From NCBI GenBank assembly GCA_039683575.1, contig JBDKRC010000021.1, positions 1 through 51,274 of the forward strand: DNA of 51,274 bases, read 5' to 3'. A program made the translations under genes and the position numbers. Below, in pieces: positions 1 through 36,166 of the stretch. This stretch comes from Armatimonadia bacterium (GTDB lineage Bacteria; Armatimonadota; Zipacnadia; Zipacnadales; UBA11051). The notes beneath the pieces are model-generated. The model was not told the origin of the DNA. It saw nothing but the letters and a program-made list of their open reading frames with translations, and ran no database searches. How positions within the stretch are numbered: position 1 is the first letter of the stretch; each line of letters opens with the position of its first letter.

Positions 1-1911
1 ACGAGTAACACCATCAGCCACTACGGCGTGGTCGTCAACCAGGGCTGGCAACAGACGATGTACCCTGGGTACCTGAACACGCTGGCCTCAGCGCCGGGCG
101 TGCAACTGATGGACGCCTCGGCGGAGAAGGTGGCGTACCCGTCTGCGGCTTCAGAATACCGCCGCAGCGTGGCGCTCATCGACATCTCGCCGGAAAGCTC
201 ATACCTGCTGGATATCTTCCGGGTCAAGGGCGGTTGGGAGCATGACTATAGCTTCCACGGCCCTGCGTTCCCTGAATTCACCGTAAGCGGCGGACAGCCC
301 GGACCGGCGCAGACCAAGGGGACGCTGGCCGGGGAGGACGTGCCCTTTGCCGGGACACCCAAGCAGGCCTCTGACACCGGAATGGCCCTGCCGCTGAGCG
401 GCGGCGAGGGCGTGCTCAAGGACAACCGCCCGTACGACCAGCGCTCACTCGACGGCTGGTCCACGTACTACTCCGGATCGGATGTCCTGTGCCGCAAGGT
501 CGGGGCCGTGATGAGCCTCAAGGCCCAGGTCAAACCCGGCAAGTACAAGGTCTTCCTGCACGCATACGACTACAATTCCGGTGTGAACGCGGTGGACGTG
601 ACCATTGGCGATCAGACCCGCAACTTCCGCTGGGAGCCGTCAGGACAAGTCGGCTACCGCTGGGTGAGCCAGGAGTTCGCGCTCGACAAGCCAGCCGAGA
701 AGATCACGCTGACGGCCAAAGAGCAGGGACAGAACTACATCCTGATTGAAAATCTGACTGTGACCACTGACCTGGAGGCGACGGAGCCGCGGGTGTGGGA
801 TCCGAGCACGAGTGGGTTCCAGTACCTGTCCAACGTGCGGCGGATGAAGCCGCAAGGCACATGGTCGGCTACGTGGCGCGATCCTGCCAAGGACCTCGGT
901 CTGACACTCACAATACCCCCACAAGTGGCCCAGGAAGCGATTCTGTGCGATGCCGAGCCGGAGTTGGCCCCTGGGATGCCCAAAACGCTCCAGTACGTCC
1001 TGGCGCGCAATGAGGGCAAAGGCAACGATCTGACTTCGACCTTCGTGGCAGTCGCCGAGCCGCACCAGGGGGCAGCGCAGGTGAAGTCCGTAGAGCGCCT
1101 GACGTCGCCGCAGGCGCTGGAGGGTACCGTGGGGCTGCAGATCAAGCTGCCGGATGCCCTGCACCTGATCCATAGCTCAACCAAGCCCGGAGAGCGGGTA
1201 ACATGGCAAGGCGCCGCGGAGCCCCTCTCAGCGGCCGCGGAGTTCGCTCTCCTGGTACTGGACGGCAAGGGCCTCAAGAGCGCGTCCCTGGTCAATGGAA
1301 CGCAGCTACAGTACGGCGCCTTCGACCTCAAGGTCGAGCCCTCTCCGGCTGGCAACGTCGTGAGCGTTGACCACGCGCACAACAGCATCGTGATCGACGG
1401 GGCGCTCAAGGCTGCAGACATGTTCATGGACCGCATTCTGATTAGTGGCAACGAGCGCCACCAGACCAGTTACACGATTAAGAGCGTGAAAGCCGAGGGC
1501 GGCCGCACCACGCTGGGCTTTGGTGACACTCTCTTCGTGGTTGGCATGGGCAAAGTGACGGGCATGGACCAGAAGGCGGGAACCATCTCCACCGATACCC
1601 AGTTGAATGGCTACGGGCGCGTGGATGGCGGGCAGCACGCCGGACGGTGGCTGTACAATGAAGATAAGACCAAGGGCTTCAGGATTGCGAGCTTCAATGG
1701 GACGGTCTTCAAGCTGGAGAAGGTAGAAGGGGAGCTGGCCACGATTTTCAGCGACGCCGATGGTGACGGGCTGAAGCGCTTCTGGATCAGCGACATCGGG
1801 CCCGGAGACACCTTCCGCATCCCGACGATCACGCATGTTGAACGGGCAGGCAACGGGACCTACAGGGTGCGGATGATGACTGATGTACAGTTGACGGTGC
1901 AGGGCCGATAA
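1..1911 (+). CDS. 5'-truncated heparinase II/III-like (polysaccharide lyase-type) protein, C-terminal part, with a probable inserted beta-sandwich domain
   Basis: Frame is open from base 1 (TSNTISHYGVVVNQ...). Motifs YRRSVALIDIS..YLLDIFRVKGG..HDYSFHGP resemble heparinase II/III-family C-terminal regions. Confidence 0.6.
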   Translation, partial: TSNTISHYGVVVNQGWQQTMYPGYLNTLASAPGVQLMDASAEKVAYPSAASEYRRSVALIDISPESSYLLDIFRVKGGWEHDYSFHGPAFPEFTVSGGQPGPAQTKGTLAGEDVPFAGTPKQASDTGMALPLSGGEGVLKDNRPYDQRSLDGWSTYYSGSDVLCRKVGAVMSLKAQVKPGKYKVFLHAYDYNSGVNAVDVTIGDQTRNFRWEPSGQVGYRWVSQEFALDKPAEKITLTAKEQGQNYILIENLTVTTDLEATEPRVWDPSTSGFQYLSNVRRMKPQGTWSATWRDPAKDLGLTLTIPPQVAQEAILCDAEPELAPGMPKTLQYVLARNEGKGNDLTSTFVAVAEPHQGAAQVKSVERLTSPQALEGTVGLQIKLPDALHLIHSSTKPGERVTWQGAAEPLSAAAEFALLVLDGKGLKSASLVNGTQLQYGAFDLKVEPSPAGNVVSVDHAHNSIVIDGALKAADMFMDRILISGNERHQTSYTIKSVKAEGGRTTLGFGDTLFVVGMGKVTGMDQKAGTISTDTQLNGYGRVDGGQHAGRWLYNEDKTKGFRIASFNGTVFKLEKVEGELATIFSDADGDGLKRFWISDIGPGDTFRIPTITHVERAGNGTYRVRMMTDVQLTVQGR

Positions 1912-3582: not shown

Positions 3583-5976
3583 TCAGGGGGCCGGTGAGAT
3601 CGTGAGGGTTTCAGACTGATAGATGGCGCTGAGGTCCAGTTCGCCGCGCGGGTCGGCCATTGCCACGTTGCGGCTCTCGCGGCCAGTGCGCCCGCGCATT
3701 GCCACCAGGTGCCGTGACGAGGGTGCAACTCGGTACGCCCCACTGCTCAGCACCAGCCGCAGCGGCGTTTCCCCCGCTCCTTCGACGTCAAAGCCCTTAC
3801 GCGCGTTGCGTACCATCGCGCCCCCGCCAAACACCCGCAGCACCACGCGCTCCGCGCCATACTCCTGAACCTCGACCGTAGCGTCTTCCGCGCGGGGCTG
3901 GACCAGCAGCGGAATCCGCATCAGGCGCTTCACCTGCCGCTCCGGCACCCTGGCCAGGATGAGCGCGGTCCCCGCGGGCAGCCCACGCTCAATGGGCGAC
4001 GCCATGAACTGCGCCACGGCCCCAAGGTAGGCCCGGCTGCCGGCAGCATACGCCGAGACTTGCCCCACCGCCAGTTCATCAGCCGCATTCAGAAGCTGCA
4101 ATCCCTCAGCGTCACCACTCATCTGCATTGTAGCGGGCAGCAGCCCCGTCTGCATCAGTTCATACGAGGCCCGGCGGCTCAGCAGGCTCGCGTGCAGAGC
4201 ACTGCTCAACGGGTCGGTCACCGGCCAGTACTGCCAGAGCGGATGCGTCGCAAACAGCCCGAGACCGCTGCCCTGCGCCCGGCCGATCAGTCCCGCGAAG
4301 TGCGGGACCTTCTCTTCATCGAAGCGCACCGACAAGGTCGCCACAGGCACCGCAGTCTCAAGTAGCGCGGCCTCGGCGGCCCAGCCGCTCACGGTCCAGG
4401 GTTTGCGCTCGGTGGCCGGGCCAGTGTTGCTCTTCCTGGCGCTGAACAACCCCTCTGATCTCGCGCCGGGATGCAGGCCGGGGAGACCGTGCAAGGCCGT
4501 GGCGCCGACGGTCAGGTCGCCCACGCGTTCGGTAAGGTCCCCCATCTGGGCGATGCCGAAGTACTGAGACAAGTCCTCCGGCAGCGTCGCCCAGGAGCCG
4601 CTTTCGTACATCCCGAGCCCCAGGTCGGCGATTGCCGCTCCACCCTTCCCAATGTATTCCTCCAACTGCACTGCCTGGGGTCTCGGCAGCCGCAAACATG
4701 CAGGAAGCAGGATGGCACCGTACTGGTCCAACTCAGCCTGCGGCAGGTCATCGACACACAGGTAGTCAACGAGACCGTACCGCGACCCAAACTTCAGGCA
4801 GTTGATCAGGGTGCTCGGTTCCCCCGGCAGCAGCCCGGTCAGGTAGCCATAGACGGGCTGGGACGTCACCGCAAACCCCTCGGCATACGGCGAGTACACA
4901 AGCGCTGTACTGGCCTTCGGAGCAACGCCGAAGGTCAGATCGCGCCACGAACTGACGTTGCGCGTCAGGTGGCGCTGCCGTACAGGGAGCCGCTGCTCGA
5001 GCTCGTATACTTCCGAGATCAGCGACCAGTCTTCCAGGGCAAAGCCGCTCGCGCCATGCAGCGCCGCCTGTGCTATCCAGTCCCGCAGCTTGTCCTGCGT
5101 GTATACAGGACTTGACCGATAAGGGACACGGAACACCGGCAGTGCCCCGAATCTTCCTCCGCGCCGCGCCATGTCAACCGCCTGCACGTTGTGGGCGTCA
5201 ACGTCGGCCTCAAGCACATCAGGCGGCATGGAGACGCACACCATATCGTAGCCGTCAGGGATCGAGGCCAGGCTGCGGTAGAGCGTCACACGCCCCGTCA
5301 GCACCGGGCGCTTGTCATCAACCGCTCGGATCGCCTCCAGCCACAGCTTCATCGTCTCGCGGAAGGCCCATACCTGGTATTCGGCCACATCCACCGACGC
5401 GCGCCCGACCTGGTAGGGGGTATTGGCATCAACCTTCCCCGCCTGTTCCCGCGTGATAGAGGGCCATGTGGGAAAGTTGGAGCCCCAGAAAGCGTTCAGA
5501 TCCCCCAGCGAGGGATAGCCTCGCTGCAGGTAGTGCCGGAAATCATCGTCCGAATACCGCAGGCTGCGCTCCAGCGAGTGTCCCGTCCCCCACGCCGTTA
5601 CGCCAGGCTCGTCCTTGAGCGCGGTTACGATATACCTGATGAGTTCGCGTACACTACCCGTGTACTGCTCATTGAGCGGGCTGACCTGATATGCACTGGT
5701 GAGACAGGTCGGCAGGCCGATGATGACTTTGAGGTTGTCCTTCTGGGCGGATCGAATGAGGGTGAGGCACGGCTGGAGATCGCTGACGTCGGAGGGTAGT
5801 AAGTCGATGTAGAGGGTATTGAGGCCCAGGTCCTTGATGGCCTGGGTGCTGCCACCGCGTTCGAGACCATAGCAGAAGGCGAAGGGCCCAACGCCCGGCT
5901 TGGCATGGACCGCCGTTGATAGCAGGCAGAAGGTGAGGTAGATGAGTGCGAACGGGAGTAGGCGTTTGGTGTTCAT
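3583..5976 (-). CDS. Secreted GH42/beta-galactosidase-like protein with trimerisation-type domain
   Basis: Signal peptide MNTKRLLPFALIYLTFCLLSTAVHA (ATG at 5976). FRHYLQRGYPSLGDLNAFWG resembles the GH42 'F..WL...Y..L..LN.AWG' motif. LDQYGAILLP/LEEYIGKGG resembles the GH42 middle domain. Confidence 0.55.
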   Translation of the reverse strand: MNTKRLLPFALIYLTFCLLSTAVHAKPGVGPFAFCYGLERGGSTQAIKDLGLNTLYIDLLPSDVSDLQPCLTLIRSAQKDNLKVIIGLPTCLTSAYQVSPLNEQYTGSVRELIRYIVTALKDEPGVTAWGTGHSLERSLRYSDDDFRHYLQRGYPSLGDLNAFWGSNFPTWPSITREQAGKVDANTPYQVGRASVDVAEYQVWAFRETMKLWLEAIRAVDDKRPVLTGRVTLYRSLASIPDGYDMVCVSMPPDVLEADVDAHNVQAVDMARRGGRFGALPVFRVPYRSSPVYTQDKLRDWIAQAALHGASGFALEDWSLISEVYELEQRLPVRQRHLTRNVSSWRDLTFGVAPKASTALVYSPYAEGFAVTSQPVYGYLTGLLPGEPSTLINCLKFGSRYGLVDYLCVDDLPQAELDQYGAILLPACLRLPRPQAVQLEEYIGKGGAAIADLGLGMYESGSWATLPEDLSQYFGIAQMGDLTERVGDLTVGATALHGLPGLHPGARSEGLFSARKSNTGPATERKPWTVSGWAAEAALLETAVPVATLSVRFDEEKVPHFAGLIGRAQGSGLGLFATHPLWQYWPVTDPLSSALHASLLSRRASYELMQTGLLPATMQMSGDAEGLQLLNAADELAVGQVSAYAAGSRAYLGAVAQFMASPIERGLPAGTALILARVPERQVKRLMRIPLLVQPRAEDATVEVQEYGAERVVLRVFGGGAMVRNARKGFDVEGAGETPLRLVLSSGAYRVAPSSRHLVAMRGRTGRESRNVAMADPRGELDLSAIYQSETLTISPAP

Positions 5977-6007
5977 GAGGTGAGGCCTGCCCATCCGAGC
6001 GATCGCG

Positions 6008-6778
6008 TCACCCCTTGGAGGGATCTTCCTTGGGCTCGCTATCAGCTTGCAGGGCCCGAGGCAGCCACTCATCCTGCGTCTCGAGCGCATGACGGGCGGC
6101 AGCCTGCTCGGCTTTGCGCTTGCTCGGGCCGGTCCCGACACCGATGGTCACTCCGCCGAAGTGGACTTCAACCGTAAACTTCAGATCGTGGTCGGGCCCC
6201 TCGACGCCAGCCACATGGTACTTGGGCAACTGCCGCAGGTGGCTCTGCAGTAGCTCTTGCAGTCGGGTCTTGTGGTCGAAGTGATTGAAGCCTGGCTCGG
6301 CTGAGTGCTGTTTGAGGTCCAGATACGGTAACAGGAACTGGCGCGTCACTTCCAGGCCGGCAGCCAGGTAGATGGCGCCCAGCAGCGACTCGACGGCATC
6401 GGACAGGAGGGAACTCTTGGTGCGTCCCCCGGACTCTTCCTCACCGCGGCCGAGCATGAGATACCGACCCAGGTTCATCTTCTGGGCGATCTGCGCCAGC
6501 GAACCGGCGCGCACTGCCGCGGCTTTCGTTTTGGTGAGGATGCCTTCGGGGACGTCGGGGTTCTGGCGGAACAACTCGTCCGCCACAATGAGGTCCAGCA
6601 CAGCGTCGCCCAGGAACTCGAGGCGCTGGTTCGACTGGTTGGCATCCAAGCCATGCTCACGCACGTAGGAGCCGTGCTGAAACGCCAGCCGCAGGAGGTC
6701 GTCCGGCATGTCTGGCAGGTTCAACTCGCTTCGAACTTCGTTCCATTCGGGGACGGCCATGCCATCATCTCGCGCCAA
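6008..6778 (-). CDS. rnc: Ribonuclease III
   Basis: Signature NQRLEFLGDAVL; DAVESLLGAIYL; dsRBD KTRLQELLQ...GPSKRKAEQAAA. The start may be the ATG at 6760. Confidence 0.97.
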   Translation of the reverse strand: MARDDGMAVPEWNEVRSELNLPDMPDDLLRLAFQHGSYVREHGLDANQSNQRLEFLGDAVLDLIVADELFRQNPDVPEGILTKTKAAAVRAGSLAQIAQKMNLGRYLMLGRGEEESGGRTKSSLLSDAVESLLGAIYLAAGLEVTRQFLLPYLDLKQHSAEPGFNHFDHKTRLQELLQSHLRQLPKYHVAGVEGPDHDLKFTVEVHFGGVTIGVGTGPSKRKAEQAAARHALETQDEWLPRALQADSEPKEDPSKG

Positions 6779-6788
6779 AGGAGCGGCC

Positions 6789-8033
6789 CTAATCTTCCAT
6801 AAGCTTAACGATCAGTACCGCGTTGTGACCACCAAAGCCGAAGGAGTTGCTCATGCCGGCCTTCCCCTTGAACTCTCGATGCTCGCCAATGACCACGTCC
6901 GAGCCTACGGAGTCATCAGGGTCATTGCAGTTAAGCGTAGCGGGGACCACGCCTTCTTGGAGCATGCGCAGGGTCAGAGCCAACTCGGTGGCGCCGGTCG
7001 CGCCAAGCTGGTGGCCATGGATGGACTTGGTCGAACTGACTAGCGGACCATCGCTGCCGGGGGCAAACACCTGTGTCAGGGCTCTGGCTTCCATGTCGTC
7101 GCCGTTGGACGTCCCGGGTGCATGGGCGTTGACGTAGGCGACGTCTTCGGCGTTCAGCTTAGCGTGCTTCAGCGCAGCCTTCATGGCCCGCGCCGCGCCG
7201 CCGCCACAGGCATCCGGAGCGGTAATGTGATAGGCATCGCCGCTCATGCCGTAGCCGACCAACTCGCCAAGGATATTGGCGCCGCGCTCCCGGGCATAGT
7301 CGAGGTCCTCAAGAATCATGGTCGTCGCGCCCTCACCGATGACGAAGCCATCACGGGTGCGATCGAAGGGACGGCAGGCCGTGAGGGGATCATCGTTGCG
7401 CTCTGATAGCGCCCCGGCCGAGCAGAAGCCCGACAGCGCGGTGCTGGTGACAGCCGCTTCGGCGCCGCCGCTGATCATGGCCTTGGCCATGCCACGACGG
7501 ATGATCTCGGCGGCCTCGCCAAGGGCGTGAGTGCCGCTGGCACAGGCGGTGACGACGGCAAGATTCGGGCCGCGCGCGCCGAATTCGATGGAGACCAGGC
7601 CGGAGGCCATGTCGATGATCATCATCGGCACCAGGAACGGACTGACGCGGTTGGGTCCGCGCTCCAGCAGAATCTGGTGCTGACGCTCCCACGTGTCCAT
7701 GCCGCCGATCCCTGAGCCTATCAGGACGCCGATGTCATCACAGTTTGACTCGTCGATTACGAGCCCCGATTGCTCGAGAGCCATCTTGGTGGTGTACAGA
7801 GCGTACCGCGCGAAGGGGTCGGCCCGCTTGATGAGCTTGGGGTCGAACTTCTCCTCAATATCGTCAAGGGGCGGCACCTGGGCTGCGATGCGCGTCTTGT
7901 ACTCTGAAGCGTCCATCTTTGTGATGGGGCCAATGCCGGACTTGCCGGCGAGGCAGTCGTTCCAGAGGGCGTCTAGACCAACGCCACTGGAAGATAGAGT
8001 GCCTATGCCTGTGATGACTACGCGATTGCTCAT
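6789..8033 (-). CDS. fabF: 3-oxoacyl-ACP synthase II
   Basis: RVVITGIG, catalytic TACASG, YVNAHAPGT, KSIHGH, SNSFGFGGHNA. Confidence 0.97.
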   Translation of the reverse strand: MSNRVVITGIGTLSSSGVGLDALWNDCLAGKSGIGPITKMDASEYKTRIAAQVPPLDDIEEKFDPKLIKRADPFARYALYTTKMALEQSGLVIDESNCDDIGVLIGSGIGGMDTWERQHQILLERGPNRVSPFLVPMMIIDMASGLVSIEFGARGPNLAVVTACASGTHALGEAAEIIRRGMAKAMISGGAEAAVTSTALSGFCSAGALSERNDDPLTACRPFDRTRDGFVIGEGATTMILEDLDYARERGANILGELVGYGMSGDAYHITAPDACGGGAARAMKAALKHAKLNAEDVAYVNAHAPGTSNGDDMEARALTQVFAPGSDGPLVSSTKSIHGHQLGATGATELALTLRMLQEGVVPATLNCNDPDDSVGSDVVIGEHREFKGKAGMSNSFGFGGHNAVLIVKLMED

Positions 8034-8204
8034 TGAATCACCGTCCCTCTAGGATAGCGGAGGGGCTGGAAGGTCGTGTTTGCGCCCAAATCGCTGGCAG
8101 TCCGAGACTGTGAGAGAACGCTGCGGACAGCCCTGAGCGGTCCGAAGCATCCTCCCACAGTACGGGGACAATGGTCAGTCTGAGAGAGTGTCAACCGGGG
8201 CCAT

Positions 8205-8444
8205 TTAGCCCGAGACACCCTTCCCTTCAAGATAGCGGACGGCATCGCCGACGGTCCGAATCTTCTCGGCATCTTCGTCGGGGATGTCAACGTTGAACTC
8301 GTCCTCGAGGGCCATGACCAACTCGACGACATCGAGGGAGTCCGCCTTCAGGTCGCCGTCAAAGGAAGCGCTTTCGGTTACCTGGCTCTCCTCGACTTTG
8401 AGCTCCTTAGCGATCAACTGCTGCACGCGTTCGAACAACGCCAT
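8205..8444 (-). CDS. acpP: Acyl carrier protein
   Basis: [20 protein letters not shown] phosphopantetheine motif; GGAGGTG RBS. Confidence 0.98.
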
Positions 8445-8514: not shown

Positions 8515-9258
8515 TCACATTATGAGTCCGCCGTCGATGTTGAGGCACTGTCCGGTCACATAACCGGCCTCCGGTGAGGCCAGGAACGCGACGACTGCAG
8601 CGACGTCCTCGGGCGTGCCGGGACGGTGCAGCGGGATCCGGGTCAGCCACGCATCGCGGGCTTCCTCAGATAGTACGTGGGTCATGTTCGTCTGGATGAA
8701 CCCGGGCGCGACGGCGTTGGCGGTGATGTTGCGGCCGCCAAACTCCTGCGCCACGCTCTTGGTAAGAGAGATCAGGCCGCCCTTGGAGGCCGCATAGTTG
8801 GCCTGGCCGGCGTTTCCGCCCACGCCGACTACTGAGGCGATGTTGACGATGCGGCCGTACTCGGCCTTCATCATCGGGCGCACGACTGCCTTCGTGCAAA
8901 GGAACGCGCCCTTGAGGTTGATATTAAGCACGATGTCCCACTGCTCTTCCTTCATCCGCAGGAGCAGGCCGTCCTTGGTGATCCCGGCGTTGTTGACGAG
9001 AATGTCAATCTTGCCGAATTCGGCCATCGCAGCCTCGACCATCTTCTCGCAGTCATCGGAAGAGGTGACGCTGCCAATGGTGACGAGGGCACGGCGCCCC
9101 ATCGCTCGGATGTCAGCAGCCACACGCTCGGCACCCTCGGCGTTGATGTCGTTGATGACGATGTTGGCGCCCTGGGAAGCCATCTTCTTGGCGATGGACT
9201 CACCGAGGCCGCCGCCGGAGCCGGTAATGATCGCGACTTGGTCCTGTAGTGGCATCAT
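8515..9258 (-). CDS. fabG: 3-oxoacyl-ACP reductase
   Basis: TGSGGGLG, NNAGITKD, NYAASK SDR motifs; lies between fabD and acpP. Confidence 0.96.
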   Translation of the reverse strand: MMPLQDQVAIITGSGGGLGESIAKKMASQGANIVINDINAEGAERVAADIRAMGRRALVTIGSVTSSDDCEKMVEAAMAEFGKIDILVNNAGITKDGLLLRMKEEQWDIVLNINLKGAFLCTKAVVRPMMKAEYGRIVNIASVVGVGGNAGQANYAASKGGLISLTKSVAQEFGGRNITANAVAPGFIQTNMTHVLSEEARDAWLTRIPLHRPGTPEDVAAVVAFLASPEAGYVTGQCLNIDGGLIM

Positions 9259-9282
9259 GTTCGGAACCCTCAATAGTTGCGG

Positions 9283-10209
9283 TTAAGACTGTAGTGCGGC
9301 TACGACGTCGGCGATCGCTTCCGGGCCATCGGCATTGTAAGCCGCCACGTCCGGCGCGCTTCGCTTGAGCATGTTGGCCAGGACCTTGCCGGGACCGACC
9401 TCGATGAAGGCGGTCACGCCCATGGCTATCATGCGGTTAATGCTGTCATCCCAGCGGACCGAGCCGGTGAGCTGCGCGAGCAGGGCCTGGCGGATGCTCG
9501 CAGCGCTTGTGCGCTCGGCGGCGTCCACGTTTGAAACCAGGGGCACTGTCGCGTCCTGCAGATCCACCTGCGCCAGCACCTCAGCAAAGCGGTCGGCAGC
9601 AGGCTGCATGAGCGGCGAATGGAAGGCGCCACTGACGTTCAACGGCATCACGCGCCGAGCGCCAGCCTCGGACGCTAGTTCGGAAGCGCGCCTGACAGCC
9701 GGCTCTTCACCGGAAATCACGATCTGCCCGGGGGCATTCAGGTTCGCCACGCAGACGATGCCGACCTCCTGGGCCTGCGCGACCGCCTGTTCCAGAGCCT
9801 CACGGTTCAGGCCAATCACGGCGGCCATCGTCCCGCCAACCTGCTGGCCGACCTCGGCCATGAGCTGCCCGCGGATCCGCACCAACCGGGCTGCGGCAAC
9901 TGCGTCGAGACAACCTGCGGCGACAAGAGCGGAGTACTCACCCAGACTGTGCCCTGCCACCACGGCAGGCCCTATGCCCTGTTCCTGCAGCACAGCGTTC
10001 ACGGCGACCGAATGCGCGAGCAGCGCCGGCTGCGCGTTCTGCGTCTGCGTCAGGTCCTTATCCGGCCCCTCGAACATGAGAGTGAGCAGGCCCAGCAGTG
10101 TACCCTCGATGTCGTCGAGGACTGCTTTGGCGGTGGGCGAGGTCTCATAGAGACTGCGGGCCATGCCGACCGATTGTGATCCCTGTCCGGGGAAGATGAA
10201 GGCGATCAT
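9283..10209 (-). CDS. fabD: Malonyl-CoA:ACP transacylase
   Basis: FPGQGSQ, GHSLGE, SGAFHS, EVGPGKVL. Confidence 0.97.
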   Translation of the reverse strand: MIAFIFPGQGSQSVGMARSLYETSPTAKAVLDDIEGTLLGLLTLMFEGPDKDLTQTQNAQPALLAHSVAVNAVLQEQGIGPAVVAGHSLGEYSALVAAGCLDAVAAARLVRIRGQLMAEVGQQVGGTMAAVIGLNREALEQAVAQAQEVGIVCVANLNAPGQIVISGEEPAVRRASELASEAGARRVMPLNVSGAFHSPLMQPAADRFAEVLAQVDLQDATVPLVSNVDAAERTSAASIRQALLAQLTGSVRWDDSINRMIAMGVTAFIEVGPGKVLANMLKRSAPDVAAYNADGPEAIADVVAALQS

Positions 10210-10233: not shown

Positions 10234-11430
10234 CTACTGGCCGAGTTCCTGCTTGAGCTTGCGGGTCAGCGCCGGCACGACCTCGAACAGGTCGCCGACG
10301 ATCCCGTAGTGTGCCACCCCAAAGATCGGGGCGTCGGGGTCGCTATTGATGGCAACGATACAGTCGGAGGAGCCCATGCCCGCCAGATGCTGGACCGCGC
10401 CGGAGATGCCGCACGCGATGTACAGCTTGGGCTGAACCGTCTTGCCCGTCTGACCGACTTGGTGGTAGGCGGGGATCCAGCCAGCATCAACGGTGGCGCG
10501 GGAGGCGCCGACAGCCGCGCCGATGACTTCGGCGAGCTCGCGAATGAGGGCAAAGTTCTCGGCCTTGCGCAGGCCGCGGCCGCCGGAGACGATGATCTCG
10601 GCGTCCTGCACGTCAATTGCGTCCGTGCCCTCTTCCTTGATGATCTCGATGATCTTGGTAGCGATGGACTTCTCGTTGAGATTGACCGTCTCGCGGATGA
10701 TTTCGGCGGTGCGGGAGGCGTCAGGCTGCGCCTTCTTCATCACGCGGGGGCGCACCGTGGACATCTGCGGCCGGGCGTTGCGGCACTGGATGGTGGCCAT
10801 GACGTTGCCGCCGAAGGCCGGGCGCGTCTGCTGCAAGAGCCGCGTCTCGGGATCGATGGCGAGGCCGGTGCAGTCGGCAGTAAGGCCGGCGCCGATGCGA
10901 GCCGCGATACGGGAAGCCAGGTCGCGCCCCATGGTGGTCGCGCCGATGAGCACGATCTCCGGCTTGTGCTTGTTGATGAGGCCGCAGATGACGCTGGTGA
11001 ACGGGTCGGTCCGGTACTGCGCGAGCGTCTCATGCTCGACGAGGTAGACCTTGTCCGCGCCATACTGCGCCGCGATCTGCGCCAGGCCCTCAACGTTCTG
11101 ACCGGCGAGGACCAGCGAGACTTCGGTGACGAGTTCGTCCGCGAGCTTCCGGCCTTCGCTGAGCAGCTCAAGCGTAACGTCCGCAAGCTTGCCATCATGC
11201 GTCTCGGCCAGCACCCACACGCCCGAATAGAGGCTCGTGTCTACCTCTTCCTTGCGCTGCACTTCGAGGACGATCGCACCGAACTTGCAGCTTCCAACGC
11301 AGGCGCCGCAGCTAGTGCAGTCATCGGTGAAACGGGCCTTGCCGTCAACAACCTCAACCGCGCCGTAAGGGCAAGCGCTCACGCAGAGCTTACAGCCCGT
11401 GCATTTGTCAATGTCTATGTAGATGCCCAT
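10234..11430 (-). CDS. etfA: Electron transfer flavoprotein alpha subunit with N-terminal 2x[4Fe-4S] ferredoxin domain
   Basis: [12 protein letters not shown] and [11 protein letters not shown] motifs, then [39 protein letters not shown] at 11430 with GGAGG RBS. Confidence 0.95.
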
Positions 11431-11505
11431 TGCGTCAGACGACCTCCAGGCGAACAATCAAACGGTGTATGGAGGGGCCGAGCTTCAGCCGGCCCAGCCC
11501 GGCAG

Positions 11506-12288
11506 CTAGATAACCTGCTTCTCGCGCAGCTTGCCTACGAGCTGCTCGACGACCTCGGCGGCCTCGCCCTCGAGGCGCTCGCCCTGCGAGTGCCGCTGCG
11601 GCGCGAAAACGCGCACAACATTGGTCGGCGACCCATTGAGCCCGCAGCGCCCGGTGTCCGCGCCGATGTCCTCGGCGGTCCACGACGGGATTTCCTTCTT
11701 GCGGGCCTTCATGACGTTCTTGAGGCTGCCGTGCCGCGGCTCGTTCATCTGCTTGACCACGGTGATCAGACACGGTAGACGCGTCTCAACGATCTCAAAG
11801 CGGTCGGACAGCAGCCGCTTGACCTTCGCCTTCTTGCCCTCGACTTCGAGGTCGATAGCGTAGGTGACCTGCGGGATGCCGAGATGCTCGGCCAGACCAG
11901 GGCCAACCTGCGCCGTGTCGCCGTCGAAGGCCTGCTTGCCGCAGATGATGAGGTCATAGTCGGCGATCTTCTTGACCGTCTGTGACAGCGTGTAGGAAGT
12001 GGCGAGGGTGTCGCTGCCGGCGAAGGCACGGTCGCAGACGAGAATGGCCTCGTCAGCGCCCATGGCCAGAGCGTCGCGCAACGCCTGTTCGGCCTGCGGC
12101 GGGCCCATCGTGATGACAGTGACCTTGCCGCCGTGCTTCTCGACAAGCTGCAGCGCGCATTCGATCGCGTTCTCATCGAAAGGATTGATGATGCTCGGTA
12201 CGCCCTCACGCACCAGCGTGTTGGTTACCGGATCAATCTTCACTTCCGTGGTATCCGGGACTTGTTTGATGGAAACGATGATATTCAT
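11506..12288 (-). CDS. etfB: Electron transfer flavoprotein beta subunit (bifurcating-type motif)
   Basis: MNIIVSIKQVPDT, INPFDENAIE, DRAFAGSDTLATS, CGKQAFDGDTAQVGP, GLNGSPT. Confidence 0.95.
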   Translation of the reverse strand: MNIIVSIKQVPDTTEVKIDPVTNTLVREGVPSIINPFDENAIECALQLVEKHGGKVTVITMGPPQAEQALRDALAMGADEAILVCDRAFAGSDTLATSYTLSQTVKKIADYDLIICGKQAFDGDTAQVGPGLAEHLGIPQVTYAIDLEVEGKKAKVKRLLSDRFEIVETRLPCLITVVKQMNEPRHGSLKNVMKARKKEIPSWTAEDIGADTGRCGLNGSPTNVVRVFAPQRHSQGERLEGEAAEVVEQLVGKLREKQVI

Positions 12289-12404
12289 ATAGTCAGGTTC
12301 CAAAGGTCAGGTTTCGGGTCTCAGGTCTCAGGCTGTGCCCGATGCCAGGCGGCCGCCTGACGAAGACGTGGGGAGGAGCTACCGCCCCTCCCCACGAGGT
12401 GTTA

Positions 12405-13562
12405 CTACTGCTTGGTGATGGCTTCCTTGAGGAGCTCGATCGCGATAACGTTGCGCTGGATCTCAGAGGTGCCCTCAACGAGCTCGAACAGCTTGCTCTC
12501 GCGCAGGTACCGCTGGACGGCGTGGTCGCAGATGTAGCCGTGGCCGCCGTGCATGTTGACCGCGCGGTTGCAGACGCGGGCGCAGACCTCGGAGGTGTAG
12601 ACCTTGGCCATGGCCGCGATCTTGCTCAACTCGGAGTTGCCCGTATCCTTGCACCAGGCCGCCTTGCGGGCGAGCAGCCGGCCGGCCTCAATCTCCATCG
12701 CCATGTCGGCGATCTGGTGCTGAATGGCCTGGAACTGGCTGATCTTCTGGCCGAACTGCTCCCGGATCAGCGCGTACTTCACGCCATCGTCATACGCCTT
12801 CTGTGCCAGACCGACAGCGCCGATGGCCATGCCGATGCGGCCGATGTCGAGCAGGTCCATGGCCACGCGGAAGCCGCGGCCTTCCTTGCCCAGCACGTTC
12901 TCAACCGGAACTTCAGCGTCCTGGAAGATGAGCTCGGTGTTCGGCACGCTGGGGAAGCCCATCTTGTGCTCGTTCTTGCCGATCTCAAAGCCCGGCATGC
13001 CCTTCTCGACGATGAACGCCGTCAGGCCGCGCATGCCTTTGGTCGGGTTGGCGTTGGCGATGACCACGTAGGTCTCCGCCGCGCCGCCGTTGGTGATGAA
13101 GATCTTGGTGCCGTTGAGGATGTACTTGTCGCCGACCAGCTTCGCCTTGGTCTTGACGGAACCCGCATCGGAGCCTACATCGGGCTCGGTGAGGCCCATC
13201 GCGCCGATCTTCTTACCGGAAGCGAGGTCGGTCAGGTACTTCTCTTTCTGCGCGTCGGTGCCGAAGGAGAGAATCGGGTACATGCAAAGCATGTGAGCGG
13301 CGAAGACGGCGCCGCTGGTGGTGCAGGCGTGGGCGAGCTTCTCGCCAACGACGGCCCAGTCTACCCAGCTCATGCCCATGCCGCCATACTGCTCGGGGAC
13401 CGGCACTCCGAAGAGGTCCATGTCCGCCATCTTCTTTACATTGTCCCAGGGGAACGTAGCGGCTGCGTCCGTTGCCTCGGCCTTGGGGGCCAGGACGTCG
13501 TCACAGAATTCCTGTACGGCGTCGAGAATCTCCTGTTGTTCTTCGGGGAATCCAAAGTCCAT
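12405..13562 (-). CDS. Acyl-CoA dehydrogenase family flavoprotein (butyryl-CoA dehydrogenase-like); candidate enoyl-thioester reductase
   Basis: GLTEPDVGSD, LNGTKIFITNG, EHKMG, GRIG, REQFG, HGGHGY, catalytic Glu in ELVEGTSEIQR. Confidence 0.93.
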   Translation of the reverse strand: MDFGFPEEQQEILDAVQEFCDDVLAPKAEATDAAATFPWDNVKKMADMDLFGVPVPEQYGGMGMSWVDWAVVGEKLAHACTTSGAVFAAHMLCMYPILSFGTDAQKEKYLTDLASGKKIGAMGLTEPDVGSDAGSVKTKAKLVGDKYILNGTKIFITNGGAAETYVVIANANPTKGMRGLTAFIVEKGMPGFEIGKNEHKMGFPSVPNTELIFQDAEVPVENVLGKEGRGFRVAMDLLDIGRIGMAIGAVGLAQKAYDDGVKYALIREQFGQKISQFQAIQHQIADMAMEIEAGRLLARKAAWCKDTGNSELSKIAAMAKVYTSEVCARVCNRAVNMHGGHGYICDHAVQRYLRESKLFELVEGTSEIQRNVIAIELLKEAITKQ

Positions 13563-13673: not shown

Positions 13674-14666
13674 TTACTTCGTCCACTCCAGCAAGCCGCC
13701 GGCCAGCGAGAAACCCGCTCCGAATGAGACCAGCAACAAGTTGTCGCCGGTCTTGAGCTTGCCTTCCTTGTACAGATCGTCCATTGCCAGGGGAATTGTA
13801 GACGCCGAGGTATTGCCGTACCGCTCAACGTCGCAGTACACGCGTTCTTCGGGGATGTCCAGTCGCTTGGCCGCAGCCTCGAGGATCCTCCGATTGGCCT
13901 GATGGAAGACGCCCCAGTCAATGTCGTCGTGCGTGAGTCCCGCCTTCTTCATCACGGCTTCAGCGACCTCGGGACACCCGCGAACCGCGAGCTTGAAGAC
14001 CTCGTGGCCCTCCATCTTCATCGTGTTGCTCTTCTCGCGGAGCACCTGCTCGTCGCAGGGATACCGGCTGCCCCCCTTCGGGATCGAGAGGTACTGCCAG
14101 TTGCTGCCGTCCGACCACAACTCGAAGGCTTTGAGCCCCTTACCGGGCTCTCCGGGGCCCACAACGACAGCTCCGGCCCCGTCACCAAACAGCACGCATG
14201 TCGCCCTGTCTTCCCAGTCAACGATCCGCGAAAGCGTCTCCGCCGCGATGACCAGAACGTGATCTGCCATGCCGCTGGTGACATACGCCGTCGCCGTCGC
14301 CAGCGCATAGATAAAGCCGGTGCACCCGAGGTTCAGATCGAAGGCACCCGCGTTGGTAGCCTCGAGCTGGCCCTGTACGAGGGAGGAAACAGAGGGGAAC
14401 GGCATATCAGGCGTAACAGTGGCGACGATAATGAGGTCAAGGTCGGTGACGGCAATACCGGCATCGGCCACCGCCGCGCGCCCAGCCGCCAGCGCCAGGT
14501 CGGAAGTTGCCTGATCCGGAGCGATGATATGCCGCTCTTTCATACCGGTATGACTATAGATCCACTCATCGGTGGTGTCGACGATCTTCTCGAGATCGGC
14601 ATTGGTCAGTATCCGCTCGGGAACATATGATCCCAACCCGATAAGCTGCGCGCCTCGTAACTCCAT
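13674..14666 (-). CDS. fabH: 3-oxoacyl-ACP synthase III
   Basis: Catalytic triad motifs LGCTGF, FHQAN, YGNTSAS; FGDGAGA. Confidence 0.96.
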   Translation of the reverse strand: MELRGAQLIGLGSYVPERILTNADLEKIVDTTDEWIYSHTGMKERHIIAPDQATSDLALAAGRAAVADAGIAVTDLDLIIVATVTPDMPFPSVSSLVQGQLEATNAGAFDLNLGCTGFIYALATATAYVTSGMADHVLVIAAETLSRIVDWEDRATCVLFGDGAGAVVVGPGEPGKGLKAFELWSDGSNWQYLSIPKGGSRYPCDEQVLREKSNTMKMEGHEVFKLAVRGCPEVAEAVMKKAGLTHDDIDWGVFHQANRRILEAAAKRLDIPEERVYCDVERYGNTSASTIPLAMDDLYKEGKLKTGDNLLLVSFGAGFSLAGGLLEWTK

Positions 14667-14790
14667 ACAAGCCACCTGGGGTGAAACCCGAGCTGTGCAT
14701 CCACCTCACTTTCCACTACGACACAACCCCGGTGAGTCCGCTAATGGCATGCCCGCCGGACTGGCTGCATGCCTCCCTGACGAAAAAAGA

Positions 14791-15810
14791 CTACTGCGAC
14801 GCGGCCATCGACTGCTTCGTCGCGTACTGCTCAAACGACTGCGCCATATGCGTCTGTACCTGGCTCTTCACGCCTGTCGCTGCCACCACGATCGCCTTGG
14901 CAATGGCCCGGGCGTCAGATTTGCCGTGGGAGATGATACAGACTCCGTTCACGCCCAAAAGCAGCGCGCCCCCATACTCCGCGTAGTCGTACTTGGCCCC
15001 CATCTGTCGCAGCGCCGGAGCCAGGAAAAACGCCCCCAGCTTCCCCCACACGCTGCCCTTGATGGCGGCTTTGAGGTCGTGCATGAAACCACTGCCGACC
15101 CCTTCACAGACCTTCAGGACCACATTGCCGACAAATCCATCGCACACGGTCACATCGACCGCGCCCTCCACTATCTGCTCGCCCTCGATGTTGCCGATGA
15201 AGTTGAGCGGTGCCCGCTCCAGCAGTGGAAAGGCCGCCTGGGTAAGGTCATTACCCTTGCTGCGTTCAGTGCCAATGCTCAGAAGCCCTACGCGGGGGTT
15301 AACGACGCCCAGCACGTGCTCGCAAAACACGCTTCCCATCAGGCCGAACTCAACGAGATGCTCAGGCTTGCACTCAACGTTGGCGCCTGCATCCAAAACG
15401 ATGCGCTTGCCGATATCGGTGGGCAACGTAATGGCGATTGCCGGACGCTGCACGCCAGGGAGCGTCCGAAGCCGCATTGTAGCCGCAGCCATCATGGCCC
15501 CGCTGTTGCCCGCAGAAACTGCGGCGTCGGCGGCGCCGTCGCGCACCAGATCAACGGAAACCGTTACCGAAGACCCCGCCTTCTGGCGCAGAGCCAACAG
15601 CGGGCTCTCCCCCATCTCGACAACATCTTCGGCATGATGTATGAGCAGGTTGGATGGGCGCGCGCCGAGCTTGGCCAGTTCGGCCTCAATCACCGGCTGC
15701 CGGCCCACCAGGATGATTTCTCCGTCCACCTGTGAGGCGGCTAACACGGCTCCAGCTACGACCGCGCCGGGGGCATGGTCACCGCCCATTGCATCCACGG
15801 CTATCTTCAT
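14791..15810 (-). CDS. plsX: Phosphate acyltransferase PlsX
   Basis: MKIAVDAMGGDHAP, SAGNSGA, DAGAN, CDGFVGN, GGALLLGV. Confidence 0.97.
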   Translation of the reverse strand: MKIAVDAMGGDHAPGAVVAGAVLAASQVDGEIILVGRQPVIEAELAKLGARPSNLLIHHAEDVVEMGESPLLALRQKAGSSVTVSVDLVRDGAADAAVSAGNSGAMMAAATMRLRTLPGVQRPAIAITLPTDIGKRIVLDAGANVECKPEHLVEFGLMGSVFCEHVLGVVNPRVGLLSIGTERSKGNDLTQAAFPLLERAPLNFIGNIEGEQIVEGAVDVTVCDGFVGNVVLKVCEGVGSGFMHDLKAAIKGSVWGKLGAFFLAPALRQMGAKYDYAEYGGALLLGVNGVCIISHGKSDARAIAKAIVVAATGVKSQVQTHMAQSFEQYATKQSMAASQ

Positions 15811-15946
15811 TGATTCACCTGAAACTACCTTAGGGCAGGTCGCCCGGTCGGCAAGCACGTACGGAGGCCTGAAGCAAGTTTGCGCCACGGGCCGAAGCAT
15901 CCGCGGCAGTCAATCATTGCTCACGACAGATCAATCGGGGCGGGAG

Positions 15947-16147
15947 TTACGACTTTTCCTGCTCTTTGGTCTTGATCGTGTGGTCGACCTGCTGACCCTT
16001 GTAGTAACCGCACTTGCTGCAAGCATTGTGGGGCTTAACGGGCGCGTGGCAGTGGGAGCATTCCGTCACGGCAGGGGCCGTCAAAGCATCGTGAGTCCGG
16101 CGCTTGTCTCGCCTCGTCGGCGAGTGTCGCCTCTTCGGTAGCGGCAT
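15947..16147 (-). CDS. rpmF: 50S ribosomal protein L32 (zinc-binding type)
   Basis: MPLPKRRHSPTRRDKRRTH; CSHC...CSKCGYY; AAGGAG RBS. Confidence 0.96.
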   Translation of the reverse strand: MPLPKRRHSPTRRDKRRTHDALTAPAVTECSHCHAPVKPHNACSKCGYYKGQQVDHTIKTKEQEKS

Positions 16148-16194: not shown

Positions 16195-16704
16195 CTAGAG
16201 CTTCAAATTCTTCAGCGCCGCCCAGCGCGGGTCAGGCTCGGTCTCGCCGCAGTCGCACGGACCCTCGTTGAGGTCCTTGCCGCACCGCAGACACAGTCCG
16301 GGGCATTCTTCGCGACAAAGCGGGCGCAGGGGCAGGTTCATCGCAATGAGCTGGCGCACCAGTTCCGTCAGGTCCAGTTCATCGCCACTGAGGATAGGTA
16401 TCTGACACAGTTCGTCCTCGCTCTCGGCGTAGGCCTCTGGGTCATCAACCTGTCGGAGCGCACAGACTTCGTTGACGTCGATCTCCATCGTGTCTTCGAA
16501 GACGCCCAGGCAGCGTCCGCATTGCAGCTCCAGCGGTACCCACAGCGTGCCACGGACGGCGATTCCACTATCCGTGTTCGAGAGCTTCAACGACCCTCGC
16601 ACCGGACCGGCGGCCACCGCCCCTGTTGCCGGAGGCGCCTCCGCCTCCAATTCCACCGTCATCTGCCCCGCGTGCTGCCGCAGCGGGCCAAGCTGGTAAC
16701 GCAT
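16195..16704 (-). CDS. yceD: DUF177/YceD family protein
   Basis: CGRCL; PLCREECPGLCLRCGKDLNEGPCDC; DPRWAAL; canonical position upstream of rpmF. Confidence 0.92.
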   Translation of the reverse strand: MRYQLGPLRQHAGQMTVELEAEAPPATGAVAAGPVRGSLKLSNTDSGIAVRGTLWVPLELQCGRCLGVFEDTMEIDVNEVCALRQVDDPEAYAESEDELCQIPILSGDELDLTELVRQLIAMNLPLRPLCREECPGLCLRCGKDLNEGPCDCGETEPDPRWAALKNLKL

Positions 16705-16756: not shown

Positions 16757-16786
16757 AGTATACTCCACCTGCGGAATCATTGTCAA
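16757..16786 (-). promoter_or_regulatory. Sigma70-type promoter of the yceD-rpmF-fab operon
   Basis: Minus strand TTGACA (16786-16781), 18-nt spacer, TATACT (16762-16757). Confidence 0.75.
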
Positions 16787-35302: not shown

Positions 35303-36166
35303 GTGCGGTTCAATGTTGATGAGGCAAAGTGCACTCTGTGTGGCGCGTGTTTGAAGACCTGTCCCACCGATATGGTGCGCGAGAAGCGGGGAGCGATCAA
35401 GATCAGCTATGTCGCCTGCATCGGCTGCGGGCACTGCATGGCGCTTTGCCCGAGCGGGGCGGTATCGCTCGATCAGATCGAGTATGAGGGGGAGTTCGCG
35501 GCGCGACCGGCGCTGACGGCGACGCCGGAGCAACTGCTCGACGTGTTCAAGGCGCGGCGGACGGTGCGGCAGTATCTGCCCGAGCCGGTGAGCCGGGAAG
35601 AACTTGAGTTGCTGCTCGAGGCGGCGCGGTATGTGCCGACCGGGGCGAATGCGCAGCCGCAGGAGTTTCTGGTCATCACCGATGAGACGGCCAAGGCGGG
35701 GCTGCGGGATGAGATCATGGAATACTACCGCGCGTATGCGGCGGCCCTGGCGGACAGGGAGCACCCCCAGCACCTGGCCGAGTTTGGCGGGACGGGCACG
35801 GGTGAGATGCATGAGCATATCCTGGCGGCGGTGCCGTCGTTTGTGAAGAATGTCGATGCGGGGCGGGATCGGCTGTTCTTTGAAGCGCCGGCAGTCATTG
35901 TGATCCACGCGCCCAGGAATGAGGTACTGCCAGAGTCGGCTTGTGCGTTTGCATGCTTTGCGATCACGCTGATGGCGGAGACGATGGGGCTGGGGACGTG
36001 CATCACCGGATATGCGTCGCTGGCGCTGCAGGCGTTGCCGGAGTTGGCTCGGGAGACCGGGGTGCCGGAGGGGAATGAGGTGTATTACGTGGTGGTGGTG
36101 GGGAGGCCGGCCGAGGATTGGCAGATGGTGCCGCCGCGCAAACCGGCAAACGTGAGGTACGTGTAG
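35303..36166 (+). CDS. Nitroreductase with N-terminal 2x[4Fe-4S] domain
   Basis: CTLCGACLKTCP, CIGCGHCMALCP, RRTVRQY, PTGANAQ, GLGTCITG. Confidence 0.9.
   Translation: MRFNVDEAKCTLCGACLKTCPTDMVREKRGAIKISYVACIGCGHCMALCPSGAVSLDQIEYEGEFAARPALTATPEQLLDVFKARRTVRQYLPEPVSREELELLLEAARYVPTGANAQPQEFLVITDETAKAGLRDEIMEYYRAYAAALADREHPQHLAEFGGTGTGEMHEHILAAVPSFVKNVDAGRDRLFFEAPAVIVIHAPRNEVLPESACAFACFAITLMAETMGLGTCITGYASLALQALPELARETGVPEGNEVYYVVVVGRPAEDWQMVPPRKPANVRYV

Follow-up and report, generated by a model that had tools for sequence, protein, structure and literature searches.

The stretch of DNA analyzed here (51,274 nucleotides, contig JBDKRC010000021.1), which we call the window, belongs to the genome of an anaerobic wastewater bacterium of the phylum Armatimonadota (6.2 Mb, 352 contigs, 96% complete; the host genome). 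It carries three adjacent genes for a flavoprotein of the acyl-CoA dehydrogenase (ACAD) family and for the two subunits of an electron-transferring flavoprotein (ETF), EtfB and EtfA, and this module lies within an operon of type II fatty acid synthesis (FAS II). An earlier reading of positions 10234-12288 (the original prediction) had described the ETF as electron-bifurcating and fused to a ferredoxin domain, and had suggested that, if coupled to FAS II, it could make lipid synthesis a source of reduced ferredoxin. Here, we describe the module as a candidate enoyl-acyl carrier protein (ACP) reductase (ENR). Its features are as follows:

12405..13562, minus strand: ACAD-family flavoprotein of 385 aa, the proposed enoyl-ACP reductase subunit (three Pfam Acyl-CoA_dh domains)
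11506..12288, minus strand: etfB, small ETF subunit of 260 aa with the predicted site for NADH and the bifurcating FAD (Pfam ETF)
11899..11940, minus strand: EtfB motif GKQAFDGDTAQVGP, residues 117-130 (translation)
10234..11430, minus strand: etfA, large ETF subunit of 398 aa (Pfam ETF, ETF_alpha and Fer4)
11236..11430, minus strand: ferredoxin-like domain at the EtfA N-terminus, about residues 1-65, with two CxxCxxCxxxC motifs (translation, Fer4, CarE alignment)
10804..10884, minus strand: EtfA motifs LTADCT (residues 183-188) and RPAFGGN (residues 203-209) (translation, CarE alignment)

Sequence type of the ETF and ACAD subunits

The interval 10234-12288 comprises exactly the two ETF genes. 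The likeliest start of etfB is the ATG at 12288 (translated frame 11506-12303, minus strand) and that of etfA is the ATG at 11430 (translated frame 10234-11457, minus strand). On the translations we recovered the EtfB and EtfA motifs named in the original prediction as well as both cysteine motifs: the peptide D122-G-D-T-A-Q127 sits inside GKQAFDGDTAQVGP, and the EtfA cysteines are C10/13/16/20 and C38/41/44/48. Pfam assigned EtfB to the ETF family (E 1.7e-53) and EtfA to ETF (8.8e-53), ETF_alpha (1.8e-37) and, in two stretches, Fer4 (1.9e-13). These motif and domain matches are far beyond chance.

For classification of the ETF, both subunits were compared with all solved structures, and the resulting scores were read together with published motif statistics (PMC8958531). 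Among bifurcating ETFs, EtfB scored 285 bits against CarD (6fah_B), 264 against the C. difficile subunit (5ol2_B), 256 against that of A. fermentans (4kpu_B), 244 against that of T. maritima (7koe_A) and 218 against LctB (7qh2_B), but only 63-125 bits against the canonical ETFs of Paracoccus, human, Methylophilus and Geobacter (1efp, 1efv, 2a1t, 1o94, 5ow0). Similarly, EtfA reached 426 (CarE), 346, 320, 313 and 292 (LctC) bits with the five solved bifurcating ETFs and at most 189 bits with the canonical ones. The best solved match of EtfB, CarD, aligned end to end (E 5e-84). That of EtfA was CarE (6fah_A, E 1e-126), and since this alignment spans residues 3-393, the ferredoxin domain is covered and its eight cysteines are all aligned. 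Thus, the CarE-like architecture, which had been proposed from the cysteine motifs, was confirmed. Domains of the CarE type are described as an N-terminal ferredoxin-like stretch that has eight cysteines and two [4Fe-4S] clusters, and for CarE itself a role as adaptor for the physiological acceptor has been suggested (PMC5861303).

According to the motif statistics, the residues of the EtfB peptide D-G-D-T-A-Q are conserved in 100, 95, 85, 100, 86 and 93% of 216 bifurcating ETFs, whereas 449 canonical ETFs have D-D-D-S-N-Q at this place (PMC8958531). EtfB of the module has the exact bifurcating form and not the canonical D-D-D-x-N-Q, and DGDTAQ is diagnostic of two-FAD ETFs. With this peptide and roughly twofold higher scores against the five solved bifurcating ETFs than against the canonical ones, the ETF belongs, by sequence, to the bifurcating two-FAD type, as had been predicted. 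In contrast, the RPAFGG arginine, which had also been named as a mark of bifurcating ETFs, did not stand up. R203 of EtfA aligns with Arg203 of CarE, but the bifurcating-site arginine is present in 214/216 bifurcating and also in 447/449 canonical ETFs (PMC8958531), and therefore it is necessary but not diagnostic.

ACAD is encoded directly upstream of etfB, and its best solved relatives (4l1f and 5ol2_C, 359 and 357 bits, E 1e-106) are the butyryl-CoA dehydrogenases (Bcd) of bifurcating Bcd-EtfAB systems. It is 45-50% identical to Bcd-type enzymes and keeps the catalytic glutamate (E363) as well as F155, the residue that bridges two FADs in Bcd. The residues at which the ETF FAD docks in Bcd, Y340/T343/Y346, read H341/I344/H347 in the module. 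A search for residues particular to the fab-linked ACAD clade described below, with thresholds of 85% or more of 58 clade rows and 15% or less of 67 others, retained W39, D49 and V250 only. A predicted complex of the ACAD dimer (alignment of 23 rows) with ACP (20 rows), calculated without controls, scored 0.31 and 0.20, where the mark was 0.32, and is neutral with regard to binding. Orthology of ACAD with CarC was considered and rejected: CarC (6fah_C) ranked only 13th (293 bits), behind Bcd and short-chain acyl-CoA dehydrogenase entries.

Operon context and distribution of enoyl-ACP reductases

The module is part of a same-strand run (yceD-rpmF-plsX-fabH-ACAD-etfB-etfA-fabD-fabG-acpP-fabF-rnc, all on the minus strand) with intergenic gaps of 9 to 294 nt. 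This run is the classical rpmF-plsX-fab cluster, into which ACAD-etfB-etfA is inserted between fabH and fabD. Its other features are:

16757..16786, minus strand: promoter-like site TTGACA-18-TATACT upstream of yceD, 11/12 positions (consensus scan, consensus match only)
16195..16704, minus strand: yceD (Pfam YceD, E 9.4e-31)
15947..16147, minus strand: rpmF, ribosomal protein L32, 66 aa (from the translated spacer between yceD and plsX; named from sequence reading and gene order)
14791..15900, minus strand: plsX (Pfam FA_synthesis, E 9e-110)
13674..14675, minus strand: fabH, ketoacyl-ACP synthase III (Pfam ACP_syn_III and ACP_syn_III_C)
9283..10209, minus strand: fabD (Pfam Acyl_transf_1)
8515..9273, minus strand: fabG (Pfam adh_short_C2; NCBIfam TIGR01830, 329.7 bits, above cut-off)
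8205..8444, minus strand: acpP, 79 aa with DSL motif (translation of the open reading frame; orthologue search)
6789..8033, minus strand: fabF (N- and C-terminal ketoacyl-synt domains of Pfam)
6008..6778, minus strand: rnc, RNase III, last gene of the run (Pfam Ribonuclease_3 and dsrm)

The consensus scan found no terminator-like site on the minus strand between 5900 and 17000. Contigs from one RNA library cover ACAD, etfB, the etfB-etfA junction, etfA and fab genes, with parts of the operon uncovered. They are a weak hint of expression, as DNA carry-over is possible and such contigs cannot show a single transcript. The 116-nt spacer between ACAD and etfB contains a G+C-rich inverted repeat (12365-12398) with a stem of about 9-10 pairs that is not followed by a T-run; judged by its sequence, it may form an mRNA-processing or stabilizing hairpin within the operon, the same run ending with rnc. 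A 100-aa open reading frame at 8030-8332 (minus strand), which overlaps acpP in another frame and has no family match, is almost certainly not a gene.

Enoyl reduction is the most variable step of bacterial fatty acid synthesis and the target of triclosan-type and isoniazid-type drugs. To our knowledge, four enzyme families are known for the reduction of enoyl-ACP. When the host genome was searched for these enzymes, FabV gave no match and the NMO/FabK family a best score of only 27 bits. Thirteen short-chain dehydrogenases/reductases (SDRs) matched PF13561, one of them being the FabG of the operon. For the 12 others, neither the FabI nor the FabL model was among the top NCBIfam hits, and the lone FabL match among the host SDRs reached 102 bits against a cut-off of 328. 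The module itself is unique in the host genome, since tblastn with the window proteins returned one ACAD, one EtfB and one EtfA; an additional match of 63 residues covered the ferredoxin part alone.

Next to the host genome, 40 further genomes of the same order were searched (41 in total). ACAD was present in 38/41, each time as a single match, and the three genomes lacking it are 66, 89 and 86% complete. The match in one relative (G017) was merely 44% identical. Gene order was inspected at 30 same-order loci with 1.5-kb flanks. Here, fabH adjoined ACAD in 29 loci, the 30th beginning at ACAD, and etfB followed ACAD in 27, the remaining three stopping at a contig edge; none of the 30 loci contradicted the order fabH-ACAD-etfB. 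The acpP orthologue was single-copy in 40/41 genomes, and in 23 of the 37 relatives with an ACAD match it shared a contig with ACAD at a distance of no more than about 10 kb. One locus (L039, genome G027) carries divergent ETF genes (EtfB 48%, EtfA 41% identical) beside a normal ACAD. Its EtfA match begins at residue 30, and this ETF may be a replacement or have a degraded ferredoxin domain.

True FabI (38-43% identity to E. coli FabI, E at most 1e-60) was confined to a single family of the order (5/41 genomes). In the other 36 genomes the E. coli FabI query detected only generic SDRs (E 1e-17 or weaker). A strong FabK-type match (197 bits) was seen in 1/41 genomes, all others scoring at most 46 bits, and FabV was found in 0/41.

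We then evaluated an even draw of 151 genomes from Armatimonadota (completeness 85% or higher) at an ACAD threshold of E at most 1e-90. One genome can count for several enzymes in this sample, which contained ACAD in 31 genomes, FabI in 103, a FabK-like protein in 23 (9 of them without FabI) and FabV in one. The FabV match (346 bits) indicates that the search was able to detect this family. The distribution of ACAD is complementary to that of FabI, FabK and FabV: 28/31 ACAD-bearing genomes lack all three, and only 3/112 genomes having one of the three carry ACAD (G019, G041, G116), but these counts overstate independence because the compared genomes are relatives, which reduces their weight as evidence for an ENR function. 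The ACAD-bearing genomes span about 13 families. In 11/151 genomes none of the four proteins was found at the thresholds used.

Fifteen Armatimonadota loci were fetched from outside the order. The trio of ACAD, etfB and ferredoxin-fused etfA is intact in families f8, f9 and f30, and no thiolase, crotonase or hbd gene flanks it in four annotated sister loci. In five of five genomes with a stand-alone ACAD of the clade, a ferredoxin-fused EtfA is encoded elsewhere. One f30 locus (L159:9240-11303, genome G159) has a gene for a UvrD-like helicase between ACAD and etfB, which splits the trio.

With ACAD as query, 80 loci from named genomes were retrieved. The majority were Bcd-type ACAD-etfB-etfA clusters of Bacillota and Bacteroidota without ferredoxin domain or fab genes. 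Outside Armatimonadota we counted seven fab-linked loci with three gene orders: fabG-acpP-fabF-ACAD-etfB-etfA with fused ferredoxin domain in Omnitrophota (L084/L085), yceD-plsX-ACAD-fabD-fabG-acpP-fabF in Syntrophorhabdales or deltaproteobacterial metagenome-assembled genomes (L072/L075/L078) and plsX-fabH-fabD-fabG-acpP-fabF-ACAD in an unclassified bacterium (L118). In a FastTree phylogeny of 108 ACADs, thinned by omitting 17/29 rows of the host's own order, the fab-linked ACADs and all other Armatimonadota ACADs formed one clade of 41 rows (support 98), with the Bcd-type enzymes outside. An IQ-TREE mixture-model tree of 56 selected rows gave the same split (SH-aLRT 96), and so did a tree of the partner EtfB proteins, with a support of 76, which is not strong.

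Within this clade we distinguish clade A, the Armatimonadota subclade that includes the window, from clade B, which holds the Omnitrophota, deltaproteobacterial and other Armatimonadota ACADs. The eight-cysteine ferredoxin domain was present at the EtfA N-terminus in 30/30 cases of clade A and 8/8 of clade B, but only in 4/34 EtfAs paired with other ACADs. EtfB had xGDT[A/G]Q in 35/35 and 8/8 cases, respectively. Nine non-Armatimonadota genomes with ACADs of the clade, whose completeness was not established, were checked for ENRs, and neither FabI nor an NMO-family match was found in five of them. The support from outside the phylum is good for Omnitrophota and mixed for the deltaproteobacterial genomes.

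The window and the host genome gave some further observations. At 35303-36166 (plus strand) the window encodes another ferredoxin-domain fusion, in which a nitroreductase-family protein carries a 4Fe-4S dicluster domain at its N-terminus. Two long open reading frames of the window with high third-position GC, 3583-6141 (minus strand, 852 aa) and 28-1911 (plus strand, 627 aa), matched no Pfam family at E at most 0.001. A second, unlinked set in the host genome (C250:26900-29900; L008, L171) comprises two ketosynthase-like genes and a FabG-like reductase. It has NCBIfam matches below cut-off to the flexirubin reductase FlxB and, by sequence, looks like an aryl-polyene or flexirubin-type cluster.

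Proposed function and alternative explanations

The link with FAS II had been put forward only conditionally, and it has become stronger: ACAD precedes etfB, the module lies within the fab operon, no other ENR was found in the host genome, and the pattern recurs across lineages. The simplest account of this evidence appears to be that the module is an NADH-dependent, ferredoxin-reducing enoyl-ACP reductase of FAS II, and with limited confidence we regard this function as probable. The ETF genes would then encode the electron-input half of a three-subunit flavoenzyme (ACAD, EtfB, and EtfA with a fused 2x[4Fe-4S] domain), which would have been recruited for enoyl-ACP reduction in place of FabI, FabK, FabL or FabV. 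The analysis establishes the content, context, conservation and distribution of the genes, and from these we infer two FADs in the ETF, NADH as electron donor, the reduction of ferredoxin and a substrate bound to ACP rather than to CoA.

The module probably works like Bcd-EtfAB and CarCDE because it has the same build, and the mechanism proposed here is adopted from these systems (PMC5691135, PMC5861303). NADH would donate a hydride to the bifurcating FAD between EtfB and domain I of EtfA. From there, one electron would move uphill via the fused two-cluster domain to free ferredoxin, while the other would move downhill to the ACAD-bound FAD via the swinging FAD in domain II of EtfA. After two such rounds, ACAD would reduce trans-2-enoyl-ACP to acyl-ACP, which corresponds to the predicted net reaction 2 NADH + 2 Fd(ox) + enoyl-ACP -> 2 NAD+ + 2 Fd(red) + acyl-ACP (Fd, ferredoxin). 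The potentials given for the crotonyl-CoA/butyryl-CoA couple (about -10 mV) and for NADH (-320 mV) provide the driving force for bifurcation (PMC5861303), if the potential of the ACP thioester is assumed, by analogy, to be similar to that of the CoA thioester.

As to the fate of the reduced ferredoxin, the original prediction had suggested a link to energy conservation and had pointed to Rnf or hydrogenase genes. Only the hydrogenases were found. No Rnf/Nqr-type subunit was detected in the 96%-complete host genome, which leaves the energy-conservation part without direct genomic backing. Ferredoxin metabolism is otherwise prominent: the host genome contains three HydA clusters with NuoF-like and NuoE-like subunits, i.e. 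of HydABC build (contigs C12, C302 and C49; L176-L178), one [NiFe]-hydrogenase with hyp maturation genes and six POR_N matches. Since no Rnf was found, the three HydABC-type [FeFe]-hydrogenases would most plausibly be the ferredoxin sinks, and therefore the gain would lie in redox balancing rather than in direct ion pumping. Two of the three clusters adjoin proteins whose hydrogenase domain is fused or linked to an ATPase domain of histidine kinases, pointing to HydS-like sensors. There is also one COX1-family match (C83:32918-34261); the open frame around it has 1741 aa and is thus longer than is usual for a subunit of a heme-copper oxidase.

Several observations weigh against the proposed function. 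The nearest solved relatives of ACAD act on acyl-CoA, the carrier-protein ACAD models of NCBIfam score far below their cut-offs, and a preference for ACP over CoA thioesters is not readable from the sequence. FabI occurs in addition to the module in the one same-order family (5/5 genomes) and in G116, and G019 has a FabK-like gene in addition to the module. In the sister families f8, f9 and f30 the trio is found outside fab operons, and the host genome encodes one thiolase and one 3-hydroxyacyl-CoA dehydrogenase. Among the nine non-Armatimonadota genomes FabI was present in one and an NMO-family protein (117-154 bits) in four, which include all three deltaproteobacterial genomes. In the host genome, the analysis could have missed a divergent ENR of the SDR type hidden in the remaining 12 SDRs, or a reductase of the medium-chain (MDR) type, for which no search was made.

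Three other functions were considered. The module might be the ENR of FAS II but pass the electrons of NADH via the ETF to ACAD only, the fused ferredoxin domain being structural or taking in electrons from reduced ferredoxin. The genomic evidence for an ENR role fits this possibility equally well, and no Rnf that could exploit additional reduced ferredoxin was found in the host genome. For ACAD, EtfB and EtfA no NCBIfam equivalog model scored above its cut-off, and the top models, all below cut-off, were those of the Clostridium acryloyl-CoA reductase subunits (416, 260 and 390 bits). Some ETF-ACAD complexes do not bifurcate, and this enzyme is such a complex that is not known to bifurcate or to reduce ferredoxin. 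Nevertheless, we consider this alternative unlikely. A couple near -10 mV, as for crotonyl-CoA, offers ample driving force, which characterized relatives use for bifurcation; the eight-cysteine domain is retained throughout clades A and B but is rare among other EtfAs; its counterpart in CarE is thought to be an adaptor for the physiological acceptor (PMC5861303); and hydrogenases that use ferredoxin are present in the host genome. Conversely, the module might run in reverse as an acyl-ACP dehydrogenase that introduces the double bond of anaerobic unsaturated fatty acids, with the ETF confurcating. FabX is a precedent for such a backtracking step. ETF complexes such as Ldh-EtfAB can run backwards, and the route to unsaturated acids in the host is unclear, as its only FabA/FabZ-family gene is a fabZ beside lpxA and lpxB and no FabM of the crotonase family was found. 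This function is highly improbable: it would leave the ENR step without an enzyme in 28/31 genomes and would consume reduced ferredoxin for a step that has no redox cost in other anaerobes.

The module could also be an ordinary acyl-CoA reductase of the Bcd/Car type, which has come to lie in the fab operon fortuitously and serves a fermentation branch or supplies short acyl-CoA primers for FabH, while the true ENR was not recognized, for instance a FabL-like enzyme concealed among the 12 other SDRs. The close relationship of ACAD with butyryl-CoA dehydrogenases, public records naming it butyryl-CoA dehydrogenase or acyl-CoA dehydrogenase, and the sister families f8, f9 and f30, in which the trio lies away from fab genes among unrelated neighbors, would fit such a role. 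The host genome also encodes one thiolase and one 3-hydroxyacyl-CoA dehydrogenase, but both are on separate contigs with unrelated neighbors and are not linked to the module. No crotonase-family match was found in the host genome, and thus a CoA-dependent route for a Bcd-like enzyme is poorly supported there; genes of such a route do not flank the trio in the four annotated sister loci either. Moreover, the same ACAD clade occurs in four fab-operon gene orders from at least three phyla, and its complementarity with FabI, FabK and FabV likewise speaks against this explanation. On balance this explanation appears improbable.

If the module is a bifurcating enoyl-ACP reductase, the ACAD/ETF complex would solve an essential step in a new way and would explain lipid synthesis in uncultured anaerobic lineages that have no recognizable reductase. 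It would also be the first bifurcation built into biosynthesis rather than into fermentation or respiration: the large drop in free energy at enoyl reduction would be regained in part as low-potential ferredoxin, and reduced ferredoxin would arise in each elongation cycle during the synthesis of membrane lipids. For annotation it would follow that a 'butyryl-CoA dehydrogenase' accompanied by a ferredoxin-fused EtfA in a genome without FabI, FabK and FabV does not indicate butyrate metabolism. The claim is directly testable with three genes and standard anoxic enzymology. We found neither an ACAD/ETF-type enoyl-ACP reductase nor bifurcation in fatty acid synthesis in the full-text literature, in which subscription journals are thinly covered, and the phrase 'fatty acid synthesis' is absent from the main review of bifurcating enzymes (PMC5861303). 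The novelty would thus consist in a new metabolic role of a known enzyme architecture. Tentatively, and with more reserve than for the function itself, we propose a fifth, mechanistically unprecedented ENR class with bifurcation inside an anabolic pathway, which may have taken the place of FabI, FabK and FabV among anaerobic Armatimonadota, Omnitrophota and some lineages of deltaproteobacteria.

Comparison with known enzyme systems

The caffeyl-CoA reductase CarCDE of Acetobacterium woodii (PDB 6FAH) has the same gene order (ACAD, etfB, etfA) and provides the best solved matches of EtfB and EtfA, including the eight-cysteine, two-[4Fe-4S] N-terminal domain and the arginine equivalent to R203. 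In contrast, CarC is not the nearest relative of ACAD (293 bits versus 359 for Bcd), and CarCDE functions in caffeate respiration, whereas the module lies in a FAS II operon and its substrate is presumed to be an ACP thioester.

Nearest to ACAD are the enzymes of Bcd-EtfAB from Clostridioides difficile (5OL2) and Acidaminococcus fermentans (4L1F/4KPU), with which it shares the catalytic glutamate and F155, and the ETFs of these systems have the same bifurcating-type motifs. However, Bcd-linked EtfAs mostly lack the ferredoxin domain (30/34), which EtfA of the module has. ACAD falls into a clade apart from Bcd in both ACAD trees and differs at the three ETF-FAD docking residues. Unlike Bcd-EtfAB of butyrate fermentation, the module has no butyrate-pathway genes near it, and no crotonase was found in the host genome.

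For the acryloyl-CoA reductase AcrABC of Clostridium propionicum (NCBIfam NF042970-NF042972), which gave the top models for all three proteins, the scores remain well below the equivalog cut-offs (416 versus 640, 260 versus 475 and 390 versus 600 bits) and the genomic context differs. Carrier-protein ACADs (prolyl-ACP/PCP dehydrogenases, where PCP is peptidyl carrier protein, and MbtN) are examples of the ACAD fold acting on carrier-protein thioesters, and they are among the matches of ACAD (4irn, 235 bits; RedW and PigA models). These enzymes are far more distant than Bcd, catalyze oxidations in secondary metabolism and lack a bifurcating ETF of their own.

The known ENRs are single NAD(P)H-dependent enzymes. 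The module takes a place in the fab operon, between fabH and fabD, mainly where FabI, FabK, FabL and FabV were not found. It is unrelated to these enzymes in sequence and cofactor logic and belongs to the Acyl-CoA_dh and ETF families. It consists of three subunits, which probably hold three FADs together with two [4Fe-4S] clusters, and each reduction would consume 2 NADH, with ferredoxin as second acceptor.

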